Source: Escherichia coli (lineage in GTDB: Bacteria > Pseudomonadota > Gammaproteobacteria > Enterobacterales > Enterobacteriaceae). Taken from it: a stretch of 19,253 bases of DNA. This document shows, piece after piece, positions 8,522 to 14,155 of the stretch (positions are counted from its first letter, which is position 1; each line of letters starts with the position of its first letter). The stretch lies in assembly GCF_003334335.1 (NCBI RefSeq), contig NZ_QOWQ01000055.1. The stretch is one strand, 5' to 3'. The notes under the pieces were generated by a model. That model ran no database searches. It had not been told where the DNA came from and worked only from the letters and a program-made list of their open reading frames with translations. Both the position numbers and the translations under genes were made by a program.

Positions 8522-9436
8522 ATGGCTGGTTTAAGGAATAACAACAACACACAGAATGCACAGTGGGCTGATTATGTGGGTGACATTCTTCGGGGGGCTC
8601 AGCCGATAAACCAGCTAGTACCTCAGCACCCTTATCTTAACGACGTCCCACTCATTGATGAGTTAAGGCATCAGAACACTCATCATGTTATTCCCTTGAC
8701 ACTTGATGTTGCAAAAAAAATACTCAGCCCAATAACATCATTTGATTACATTCATTTTATCACTACACATCCTTCAGGTATAAAAGATACACTCGCTTGG
8801 TTAGTTAACGCGGGTAAATTAATGACTGAGTTTGATGACAATGGGAAAATTATATTTAACCTTAATGCCTTAAAGTATACAAAAGCAAGTTACTTTGAAA
8901 TACTTGGAGAGAAATATATAAAAATCACAACATCCAGCCCCTGGCTTTTAGAAAAGCTCGGTAAATATATTTTCTCTTCACGAGCGCCTCAAGTTCTGGA
9001 ACTCGCTATTGGCTGGCGAGGAGCTTTATCTGAATCAATAAAAGGAGTTAAGTTCTGTATCTGGTTTTCAGTAGCCTGGAGAACCATAGAATTTATTATG
9101 AGTTCAGAGCGAGATCTGGTTAATTTTCTTGGCGATTTTTCAATGGATGTGGCCAAAGCAGTTATAGCCGGTGGTGTTGCAACCGCTATTGGAAGTCTGG
9201 CTTCTTTTGCCTGTGTTAGCTTTGGCTTTCCAGTAATTCTTGTCGGAGGAGCAATTTTACTGACAGGGATAGTGTGTACAGTTGTTTTAAATGAAATCGA
9301 TGCTCAATGCCATTTATCAGAAAAATTAAAATATGCAATTAGAGATGGACTAAAACGGCAACAGGAACTTGATAAATGGAAAAGGGAAAACATGACTCCA
9401 TTTATGTATGTTCTTAACACTCCACCCGTGATATGA
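8522..9436 (+). CDS. Hcp-linked 304-aa protein with soluble N-terminal domain and C-terminal small-xxx-small (glycine-zipper-like) transmembrane hairpin; likely the intact form of the yafU-type gene
   Basis: GGAGAG RBS 6 nt before ATG at 8522 (the track's 8507 start is a TTG). C-terminal hydrophobic segments VIAGGVATAIGSLASFACVSFGFPVILVGGAILLTGIVCTVVL. Position between hcp and ykfM matches where yafU sits in K-12 (from memory). Confidence 0.7.
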   Translation: MAGLRNNNNTQNAQWADYVGDILRGAQPINQLVPQHPYLNDVPLIDELRHQNTHHVIPLTLDVAKKILSPITSFDYIHFITTHPSGIKDTLAWLVNAGKLMTEFDDNGKIIFNLNALKYTKASYFEILGEKYIKITTSSPWLLEKLGKYIFSSRAPQVLELAIGWRGALSESIKGVKFCIWFSVAWRTIEFIMSSERDLVNFLGDFSMDVAKAVIAGGVATAIGSLASFACVSFGFPVILVGGAILLTGIVCTVVLNEIDAQCHLSEKLKYAIRDGLKRQQELDKWKRENMTPFMYVLNTPPVI

Positions 9437-9445
9437 GGATTAACC

Positions 9446-9925
9446 ATGCGTTTACATGTTAAATTAAAAGAGTTTCTTTCGATGTTTTTTATGGCCATAT
9501 TATTTTTCCCTGCATTCAATGCTTCTTTGTTTTTTACCGGAGTTAAACCTCTATATTCAATAATAAAATGCTCCACGGAAATATTTTATGATTGGAGAAT
9601 GTTGATTCTGTGCTTCGGTTTCATGTCGTTTTCCTTTTTAAATATTCATGTAATTTTACTTACGATAATAAAATCATTCTTAATCAAAAAAACGAAGGTA
9701 GTCAATTTCGCCACAGACATAACAATACAGCTAACTCTTATATTTTTACTAATAGCTATCGTAATAGCACCTTTAATAGCTCCTTTTGTCACAGGATATG
9801 TCAATACTAATTATCACCCCTGCGGTAATAATACGGGAATTTTCCCAGGAGCAATCTATATTAAAAATGGCATGAAATGTAATAATGGATATATTTCTCG
9901 CAAGGAAGATTCAGCAGTTAAATAA
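9446..9925 (+). CDS. ykfM: Small polytopic inner-membrane protein (159 aa), YkfM-like
   Basis: GAGG RBS; start 10 nt after the upstream stop; several hydrophobic helices; very AT-rich coding sequence; size and position match ykfM next to yafT in K-12 (from memory). Confidence 0.7.
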   Translation: MRLHVKLKEFLSMFFMAILFFPAFNASLFFTGVKPLYSIIKCSTEIFYDWRMLILCFGFMSFSFLNIHVILLTIIKSFLIKKTKVVNFATDITIQLTLIFLLIAIVIAPLIAPFVTGYVNTNYHPCGNNTGIFPGAIYIKNGMKCNNGYISRKEDSAVK

Positions 9926-10027
9926 TTAAATATTCTAAAACAAACAGTTTTTAACTCCGGATTCCATGTCCTTTCTTGCACTGTCTTTGTCAAGAAAAAT
10001 TTCTTATGCAAAGAATTTTGTATTATT

Positions 10028-10062
10028 GCCGCCAGAAATTCCTGGCGGCAGATATAATTTAT
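10028..10062 (+). terminator. Hairpin between convergent ykfM and yafT (probable bidirectional terminator)
   Basis: Stem gccgccag (10028-10035) / ctggcggc (10042-10049), loop aaattc, followed by a moderately T-rich tract. Confidence 0.4.
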
Positions 10063-10847
10063 TATTGATAGCGGTTAACCAAATCTTTTACCATCGCTTT
10101 ATAGGTCTTTTGCTTAAGTTGCATGATTTGCTGCTCTGTCATATCAGTCGTACTGGCTTCATTCTTGTCGGGCAATGGTGGAAGCACTTTATATTCATAA
10201 TTCACCGGCGACCAGGTAGCCCACTCACCTGTTGCCACATCCACCAGCGTGAAACGTACCAGGTAGCGCAGGGAGATAGCGTCAGTGAGTTTGTCATTTT
10301 TATAGTCGGACCATACTGTTGATTTCAGCGCAGAGTCATATTTTCCTGTCTGCAACATATCCTGGTAAACAATAATCGCTTTCTGATGTCCTTTTGCAGC
10401 CACAAAACGCAGTGCCTGCATCCAGTTCATATTCTCAGCACTGGCAACATCCTCGTTCTCATTTTTATCTTTGTTTTTGTTACAAGTCAGAGGCTTTTGC
10501 CTGTCCGGGATACCAGAGAATGTGGAAACAGTATAATATTTTCGCATCTCCTCCTGCATAATGGTTTCCGGTGCGCGGTTGCCGGATTGAACAAGTATTA
10601 CAGGAGAATTAAGGGGAACGCGGAACTCATCTCCATCAAGCGCAGCTTGAATATCCTCTTCGGATACGGCCAGAGTGGTTTCATTACCGAATAAATCTTT
10701 GTCTGTCAGTTGCTGGGGAGTGTTTTTATTAATATTACTTTGTGTGACTTGAGCTTTTTTCTTCTTTTCATCAATAGAAGATTCAGAGGCACATCCTGCA
10801 AGCAGCGAGAATAACACACATATGCAACAAAGCTTTTTTGAATTCAT
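10062..10847 (-). CDS. yafT: Lipoprotein YafT (261 aa)
   Basis: N-terminus [24 protein letters not shown] is a lipoprotein signal with lipobox LAGC; GAGGGAG RBS; size and position next to aspV match K-12 yafT (from memory). Confidence 0.8.
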
Positions 10848-11109
10848 AATTGGACACTCCCTCGCCTGTCATAATGATTAGAATATTTAGCATTGATAAC
10901 GGACTCTAATTATATACCTCACTTAAATAATAACAAACAAAATCAATTTGAAATATACATTCATTTAATCAATATAAATTTATTCTCTAGAAATATATTT
11001 AAGCTGAATGGTTCGATATCATTATTGAATTTTAATGAATGAGACAACAAGCGAGAATCACGCACCTACGCCAGAGTAAAATCATTGAACAGAGAAATGG
11101 TGGAATTCA

Positions 11110-11146
11110 AATACAAAAAAACCGCAAAATTAAAAATCTTGCGGCT
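11110..11146 (-). terminator. Rho-independent terminator downstream of aspV
   Basis: Minus-strand hairpin ccgcaagatttttaattttgcgg followed by a U-run (plus-strand A-run 11114-11121), ~30 nt after the tRNA 3' end. Confidence 0.6.
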
Positions 11147-11174
11147 CTCTGAACTCATTTTCATGAGTGAATAG

Positions 11175-11251
11175 TGGCGGAACGGACGGGACTCGAACCC
11201 GCGACCCCCTGCGTGACAGGCAGGTATTCTAACCGACTGAACTACCGCTCC
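11175..11251 (-). tRNA. aspV: tRNA-Asp (GUC), 77 nt with encoded CCA
   Basis: Reverse complement reads GGAGCGGTAGTTCAGTCGGTTAGAATACCTGCCTGTCACGCAGGGGGTCGCGGGTTCGAGTCCCGTCCGTTCCGCCA, the E. coli tRNA-Asp sequence as I recall it, with anticodon GUC in the loop. Confidence 0.95.
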
Positions 11252-11279
11252 GCGTTGTGTTCCGTTGGGAACGAGGCGA

Positions 11280-11308
11280 ATATTACGGATTGCCTCGACC
11301 TTCGTCAA
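11280..11308 (-). promoter_or_regulatory. Probable sigma70 promoter of aspV (TTGACG-17 nt-TAATAT) with GC-rich discriminator
   Basis: Minus strand: -35 TTGACG (11303-11308), 17-nt spacer, -10 TAATAT (11280-11285), then gcgcctc; AT-rich UP-like tract upstream; the tRNA starts ~28 nt downstream. Confidence 0.55.
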
Positions 11309-11383
11309 CGGTTTTTCTCATCTTTTGAATCGTTTGCTGCAAAAATCGCCCAAGTCGCTATTTTTAGCGCCTTTCACAGGTAT

Positions 11384-12115
11384 TTATGCTCGCCAGAGGC
11401 AACTTCCGCCTTTCTTCTGCACCAGATCGAGACGGGCTTCATGAGCTGCAATCTCTTCATCTGTCGCAAAAACAACGCGTAACTTACTTGCCTGACGTAC
11501 AATGCGCTGAATTGTTGCTTCACCTTGTTGCTGTTGTGTCTCTCCTTCCATCGCAAAAGCCATCGACGTTTGACCACCGGTCATCGCCAGATAAACTTCC
11601 GCAAGGATCTGGGCATCGAGTAATGCCCCGTGCAGCGTTCGTTTACTGTTATCTATTTCGTAGCGAGCACATAACGCATCGAGGCTGTTGCGCTTACCGG
11701 GAAACATTTTCCTCGCCACCGCAAGGCTATCGGTGACCTTACAGAAAGTATTGGTCTTCGGAATATCGCGCTTAAGCAACGAAAACTCGTAGTCCATAAA
11801 GCCGATATCGAACGCTGCGTTATGGATCACCAACTCCGCGCCGCGAATATAGTCCATGAACTCATCGGCTACTTCGGCAAACGTGGGCTTATCGAGCAAA
11901 AATTCATCGGCAATACCATGTACGCCAAAGGCTTCCGGATCCACCAGCCGATCGGGTTTGAGATAAACATGGAAGTTATTGCCCGTCAGGCGACGGTTCA
12001 CCACTTCAACGGCACCAATCTCAATGATCTTGTGGCCTTCATAGTGCGCACCAATCTGGTTCATACCGGTGGTTTCGGTATCGAGAACGATCTGGCGTGT
12101 AATTGCAGTGCTCAT
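11384..12115 (-). CDS. dnaQ: DNA polymerase III epsilon subunit (3'-5' proofreading exonuclease)
   Basis: Translation [20 protein letters not shown]...GGSCLWRA recognised as DnaQ (243 aa). An in-frame ATG three codons upstream (12122-12124) is an alternative start. Confidence 0.95.
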
Positions 12116-12179
12116 AGCGGTCATTTATGTCAGACTTGTCGTTTTACAGTTCGATTCAATTACAGGAAGTCTACCAGAG
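12116..12179. promoter_or_regulatory. Divergent dnaQ / rnhA promoter region
   Basis: 64-bp gap between divergent start codons; a possible rnhA promoter is TTGTCG-17 nt-ATTACA. Known from the literature to carry overlapping divergent promoters; individual sites not confidently resolved here. Confidence 0.45.

Positions 12180-13396: not shown

Positions 13397-14155
<759 letters not shown>

Follow-up and report, generated by a model that had tools for sequence, protein, structure and literature searches.

The AT-rich aspV-yafT spacer of Escherichia coli carries a conserved predicted yafT promoter and is probably the H-NS-bound border of a decayed type VI island

Genetic organization of the aspV-yafT locus

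The window, that is, the whole stretch of 19,253 nt analyzed here, was a segment of the E. coli chromosome that runs opposite to the K-12 orientation. Near its middle lay yafT (10062-10847, minus strand), which encodes a 261-aa lipoprotein of unknown function (Pfam PF25851, YafT). On one side of yafT, the tRNA-Asp gene aspV (11175-11251, minus strand) was identified by its tRNA match and was followed further on by dnaQ (11384-12124, minus strand), and a second tRNA-Asp gene, aspU, at the end of rrnH, started at 19178. To the left of yafT, ykfM, a hypothetical gene (309 aa), a gene for Hcp, a VasL-domain gene, a C-terminal remnant of IcmF, a remnant of an RHS core and ISAs1 were found, and this part of the window (1-9925) is a decayed type VI secretion island. 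The RHS core was a truncated pseudogene, the VasL-domain and Hcp genes were intact, and in K-12-like strains further loss of the island via IS1 and ISAs1 was observed.

The spacer between the two genes (10848-11112) was identical, at 100%, to 237070-237334 of K-12 MG1655, so window positions were converted by the formula K-12 = 248182 - window position. Our analysis was focused on its AT-rich, TpA-rich part, the tract at 10848-11060 (K-12 MG1655 237122-237334), which holds the predicted yafT promoter and its upstream region. As the earlier note on this DNA had stated, the tract was bounded on one side by the start codon of yafT (10847-10845, minus strand) and on the other by the intrinsic terminator of aspV, a hairpin with a T-run (11150-11116, minus strand). 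No feature was annotated in the spacer in any RefSeq E. coli genome. The Rfam scan of 9900-11400 returned the tRNA as the sole match, with weak gltS and RcsR1 signals (9970-10102) far below the threshold, and none of the spacer open reading frames of 21-49 aa was credible, as start signals and conservation were absent from them.

Base composition, palindromes and predicted curvature of the tract

The AT content of the tract was 73.7%, compared to 50.8% in the whole window, and it ranked 69th among 19,041 overlapping 213-bp sliding segments. The maximum (75.6%, at 10834-11046) was essentially the tract itself, and the other intergenic spacers of the window, with 54-68% AT, were all below it. 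In this way, the description of about 200 bp of very AT-rich DNA was confirmed. The share of TpA steps was also raised, from 5.3% in the window to 11.7% in the tract. Only two homopolymer runs of at least four were present, AAAA at 10939 and TTTT at 11030, which made the "A- and T-tracts" of the earlier note a weak description; the unusual trait of the tract is mixed A/T sequence with abundant TpA steps. In the 3' third of gloB (13888-14100), the AT content nearly reached that of the tract, at 71%, though this segment belongs to the coding sequence of a core gene.

The perfect 8-bp palindrome "ttctagaa" (TTCTAGAA) which had been reported for the tract was absent, and the nearest sequence was CTCTAGAA at 10985-10992, with one mismatch. 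Behind the reported palindrome stood the 6-bp TCTAGA (10986-10991), a palindrome of chance frequency that was not conserved. The tract contained seven six-bp and two eight-bp palindromes against shuffle means of 5.9 and 1.7, respectively, which is the chance level. Two of the aligned strains with allele A of the spacer (see below), O157 strain 319 and ECO2947, had TCCAGA at the place of TCTAGA, and the strains with allele B differed from TCTAGA further than these. Because the other two aligned A-allele strains read TCCAGA, the TCTAGA of the window was regarded as the product of an unshared SNP.

Curvature was predicted by a wedge model with the parameters of the Shpigelman 1993 table. The mean value of the tract was average (6.0 degrees per turn, compared with 5.9 for the window), and its end-to-end ratio was no lower than in shuffled sequences, so the curvature prediction that had been proposed as a check gave no sign of a curved tract. 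The same model reached 23.5 degrees per turn near 11328, the maximum of the window, which served as a sanity check. This peak sits immediately ahead of the aspV promoter, the -35 of which is at 11308, and strong upstream curvature is typical of stable-RNA promoters. Another predicted peak was located in the 3' third of gloB, near 14034.

In its high AT content upstream of a promoter, the tract was similar to intrinsically curved A-tract DNA and to Fis/UP-type upstream regions. It differed from them in having only two runs of at least four, unphased and with average predicted curvature, and in the lack of a Fis consensus, as a search of the tract for this consensus found no match.

A predicted promoter in front of yafT

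On the minus strand of the tract, a -35 hexamer TTGTTA (10931-10936; TTGTTC in allele B) and a -10 hexamer TATAAT (10909-10914, inside the invariant block GTATATAATTA) were separated by 16 nt, and together agreed with the sigma-70 consensus at 10 of 12 positions. From its distance to the -10 hexamer (4-9 nt), the transcription start of yafT was predicted near 10900-10905 on the same strand, which would give a leader of about 55-60 nt. The Shine-Dalgarno sequence GAGGGAG (10857-10863, minus strand) was found 9 nt before the ATG as part of the block ATGACAGrCGAGGGAGTGTCC, which was conserved in both E. coli alleles. The fold of the leader RNA was less stable than those of shuffled sequences (z = +1.27) and showed no significant structure. 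The claim that the tract drives yafT on the minus strand was therefore supported by a near-consensus sigma-70 promoter kept in both alleles. Compared with a canonical sigma-70 promoter, the yafT site was alike in its hexamers, spacing, 10/12 match and conservation across genera, and it differed in two respects. It had no extended -10 TG, and for so good a match it appears to be little active in vivo, as a repressed promoter would be.

Homologues of PF25851 were found in E. albertii, E. fergusonii, Salmonella, Citrobacter, Enterobacter, Lelliottia, Hafnia, Buttiauxella and Pseudocitrobacter. At most of the loci that were retrieved, a cluster of Hcp, VasL and IcmF genes ended in yafT, and the gene on the other side of yafT varied (dnaQ with tRNA-Asp, DUF554 with tRNA-Phe, a type II secretion operon or a phosphate transporter). 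Each of the 13 yafT upstream regions, which came from 10 genera, from E. coli to Hafnia, had a TATAAT at a distance of 46-61 nt from the ATG, and the -10 region mostly read (A/G)GTATATAAT. In most of these regions, including E. albertii, both Citrobacter, Hafnia and Buttiauxella, TTGTnn was located 16 nt upstream of the -10 hexamer. The last 213 nt before yafT were 62-75% AT in all genera examined, whatever the neighbour gene. The conservation of TATAAT and TTGTnn across the 13 regions is a strong footprint, and argues that the predicted promoter is very probably real and travels with the island.

Two alleles of the spacer in E. coli

Some version of this spacer was present in 4254 of the 5426 complete E. 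coli genomes, and the tract was missing from the other 1172. The identity to the window spacer was bimodally distributed: about 2630 genomes, including K-12 and O157, showed at least 90% (allele A), 1619 genomes, including BL21 and APEC strains, fell between 60 and 80% (allele B), and exactly one genome was intermediate. The two alleles were about 66-72% identical to each other. A partial spacer only was found in about 106 of the 4254 carrier genomes. The yafT DNA thus had the traits of horizontally acquired or variable DNA, that is, the tRNA-Asp gene beside it, its presence in 4254 of 5426 genomes, two divergent alleles, type VI, RHS and IS neighbours, and the occurrence of the same module next to tRNA-Phe or further genes in other genera.

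Six E. coli strains with the two alleles were aligned. The tRNA was 100% identical and the aspV terminator 92-97%, and the divergence between alleles climbed sharply just past the T-run of the terminator, at about 11112, where the identity dropped to 66-71%. The identity between alleles was 66% upstream of the -35 hexamer, 76-78% in the core promoter and 77-79% in the leader. Within this diverged spacer, the -35 TTGTT, the 16-nt spacing, the block GTATATAATTA with the -10 hexamer and the Shine-Dalgarno block were invariant in the six strains. Further upstream, the invariant blocks were TTGATTwAATGAAT (10972-10959), TTAAATATATTT (11002-10991), TCGAA / CATTCA (about 11016-11005) and TCATTAAwATT (about 11039-11029).

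Part of these blocks formed a near-palindrome, ATTGATTAAATGAAT (10959-10973, minus strand), which was kept in both E. coli alleles, and at its position E. albertii had a perfect 15-bp palindrome, ATTCATTAAATGAAT. In 7 of 10 lineages, TGAAT preceded the -10 hexamer by either 48-50 or 39-40 nt. The core of a second conserved block, TCATTCATTAAAATTC (11027-11042, minus strand), repeated the CATTCATTwAA core at 10958-10968 in inverted orientation, and the centres of the two cores were 73 bp, about seven helical turns, apart; such a pair could be due to chance in AT-rich DNA. As k-mer sharing among the ten yafT upstream lineages was not above that of shuffled sequences, the TGAAT block was noted as a candidate operator only. 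The consensuses of FNR, CRP, ArgR, ArcA, MetR and Fur, compared by eye, fitted the blocks poorly.

Insertions were also found in the spacer of natural strains. In strain D53-1, IS1B had produced a target-site duplication at 11006-11015, and strain 10034940-2 had an IS1 junction at 11054 together with the loss of yafT, an event independent of that in D53-1. At the distal edge of the tract, 11045-11071 resembled a signal-peptide segment of yafT (10799-10825) over 22-27 nt (GCGTAGGTGCGTGATTCTCGCT compared with GCATATGTGTGTTATTCTCGCT). The score of this local alignment was matched by 1.2% of shuffles, and the likeness may go back to an old partial duplication or be due to chance.

When species-representative genomes were scanned for the exact pattern of the conserved leader, four matches were obtained, one of them by chance. 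The "Citrobacter sp." MAG HRGM_Genome_0066 contained two different yafT-aspV alleles on separate E. coli-like contigs, and the Nocardioides malaquae assembly a 269-nt contig 100% identical to E. coli 10765-11033, both of which look like contamination or mixed bins.

H-NS occupancy and silencing of the yafT locus

Publication of H-NS ChIP data for K-12 allowed the occupancy of the identical tract to be read, a check which the earlier note had suggested. In the anaerobic part of Table S3 of Myers et al. 2013 (PMC3688515), H-NS ChIP-chip peaks were listed at K-12 236434-238303 and 238564-239794, which correspond to 9879-11748 and 8388-9618 of the window, and the tract (K-12 237122-237334) fell within the first. 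Highly transcribed aspV lies under this peak as well, and all of the rrnH operon (223568-229068) is listed in that table, so some of the signal may be artefactual. In Table S7 of that study, an FNR peak "within yafT" was listed only for the Δhns/ΔstpA mutant (0.34 to 0.56, significant), and 81% of the FNR peaks new in this mutant were given as falling in H-NS regions (PMC3688515).

The locus has also been studied with reporters. The yafT locus is a transcriptionally silent extended protein occupancy domain (tsEPOD), in which an inserted lac promoter-gfp cassette was silenced, and replacement of K-12 237530-239300 relieved this silencing (Bryant et al. 2014, PMC4191405). The transcriptional propensity of the yafT site was low, and among three nearby reporter sites it showed the lowest expression in all media tested (Scholz et al. 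2022, PMC9561378). The replaced domain corresponds to window 10652 leftwards and starts about 195 bp inside yafT; since it begins at K-12 237530, the tract, about 200 bp outside, was not included in it. In EHEC, the aspV-linked type VI island was barely expressed and was derepressed in Δhns, where hcp-2 was increased 60-fold and z0254, z0264 and z0267 were derepressed (Wan et al. 2017, PMC5363993).

For the high-affinity H-NS motif TCGATAAATT, the best match in the tract was 7/10, and the density of similar matches exceeded that of the window only as the AT content predicts. The high-affinity motif helps H-NS binding and is not obligatory for it. Two further published peaks have been assigned to yafT. 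One, from FNR ChIP-seq/ChIP-chip, lies at the 3' end of aspV, at about 11177 (K-12 237005), with a weak motif score, and is probably a tRNA-gene artefact; the other, an RpoS-holoenzyme SELEX peak, lies inside the 3' end of yafT, at about 10132 (K-12 238050).

Discussion

The tract is already known as the aspV-yafT spacer of K-12, base for base, and neither its locus nor the kind of element that it represents is new; the yafT locus itself has served in published work to illustrate a silent region that is occupied by proteins and bound by H-NS. The earlier note had suggested a promoter of a horizontally acquired gene that is silenced by nucleoid proteins. The K-12 H-NS peak, the silencing at the locus, the repression of the EHEC island and the variable, tRNA-adjacent DNA supported this idea; its details about a palindrome and A- and T-tracts failed, and so did the argument from curvature. 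Our preferred interpretation, to which we assign a probability of about 75%, is that the tract comprises the yafT promoter with its upstream region and the tRNA-proximal border of a decayed type VI island, bound by H-NS and largely silenced.

According to this interpretation, a strong-looking sigma-70 promoter (TTGTTA, 16 nt, TATAAT) would direct minus-strand transcription from near 10900-10905, and the resulting leader, about 55-60 nt long, would contain a good ribosome-binding site. H-NS, probably with StpA, would be recruited by the AT-rich, TpA-rich sequence that surrounds the promoter and extends upstream of it, and the H-NS-enriched domain would spread over yafT and ykfM and exclude RNA polymerase, and through this domain the yafT promoter would be largely silent in laboratory conditions. 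The data show H-NS occupancy in K-12, silencing at the level of the locus and conservation of the promoter; from the tract as a nucleation site for H-NS to the direct shut-off of the yafT promoter by H-NS and the position of the transcription start, the further steps are what we infer.

The tract and its locus resembled known cases of xenogeneic silencing by H-NS, such as the EHEC aspV-linked type VI islands and Salmonella SPI-6, in the AT-rich and TpA-rich promoter region, the location on the margin of a type VI island linked to a tRNA gene, the ChIP enrichment in K-12, the silencing of reporters and the repression of the homologous EHEC island by H-NS. Unlike in such islands, a high-affinity nucleation motif and predicted curvature were absent from the tract, and the type VI island of the present strain was a remnant in which little was left to silence. 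Among tsEPODs, the yafT locus is one of those tested and silences an inserted lac promoter (PMC4191405); the tract lies about 200 bp outside the replaced domain, yet inside the H-NS ChIP-chip peak.

Three other explanations were weighed against this one. The tract could be a plain AT-rich promoter in which nucleoid proteins play no particular role, with the ChIP signal spilled over from aspV and yafT expressed weakly or conditionally. Artefact peaks at very active genes are familiar. In favour of a plain promoter, the rrnH operon appears in the H-NS table (PMC3688515), the weak-motif FNR peak at 237005 is at the 3' end of aspV, the mapped tsEPOD starts inside yafT and outside the tract, and neither a high-affinity motif nor curvature was predicted in the tract. 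However, as listed in the tables of PMC3688515, the H-NS peak reaches 1.3 kb past aspV over all of yafT, a second peak lies on ykfM-yafU, and the FNR site within yafT is unmasked in Δhns/ΔstpA. Reporters placed at the locus were silenced, the homologous EHEC island was repressed by H-NS, and the silence of a promoter so near to the consensus would be unexpected without repression, so that a plain promoter was considered unlikely. The absence of function upstream of the core promoter was judged highly improbable. In that case, this part of the tract would be the scar of a decaying junction between tRNA and island, AT-rich by mutational bias, which would fit the identity of just 66% between alleles upstream of the -35 hexamer, the IS1 insertions and IS1-mediated deletion tolerated in natural strains and the 1172 genomes that lack the tract. 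Against it, discrete invariant blocks survive within the diverged stretch, the 213 nt upstream of yafT are 62-75% AT in every genus examined, next to any neighbour, and H-NS occupancy is listed in the published peak table.

It was also considered that the main control of yafT is exerted by a specific factor, which would act at the TGAAT near-palindrome (10959-10973) and its inverted partner (11027-11042) and counteract a background of H-NS. The TGAAT blocks do not vary between the E. coli alleles, the identity of which is otherwise 66%, the palindrome is perfect at the same place in E. albertii, TGAAT recurs at -48 to -50 or one helical turn nearer in 7 of 10 lineages, and the inverted copies are spaced by about seven turns. 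On the other hand, the k-mer sharing of the ten lineages did not exceed that of the shuffled controls, pseudo-palindromes are plentiful in AT-rich DNA, and no known factor could be assigned to the blocks, as the consensuses of FNR, CRP, ArgR, ArcA and Fur fitted poorly by eye. A specific factor as the main control was thus thought quite unlikely; it would be compatible with, rather than opposed to, the H-NS explanation. A wider proposal, which we regard as speculative and improbable, would make yafT a conserved gene that closes i1-type type VI islands at their tRNA-proximal end across Enterobacterales, with a near-invariant GGTATATAAT promoter, and would see in the conserved near-palindrome with TGAAT, some 60 bp ahead of the start, together with the inverted partner 73 bp off, the operator of an H-NS-countering regulator that couples yafT to type VI activity.

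Silencing by H-NS at an island border therefore remained our preferred interpretation of the tract. To what was known of this locus, our work made three small additions: a well-supported position for the yafT promoter, which is annotated in no RefSeq record; the conservation of this promoter wherever yafT caps a type VI cluster; and the finding that the aspV-yafT spacer of E. coli comes in two very old alleles. These results have little import beyond annotation, and the position of the promoter, its conservation and the two alleles could aid studies on YafT or on the regulation of T6SS-1 islands.
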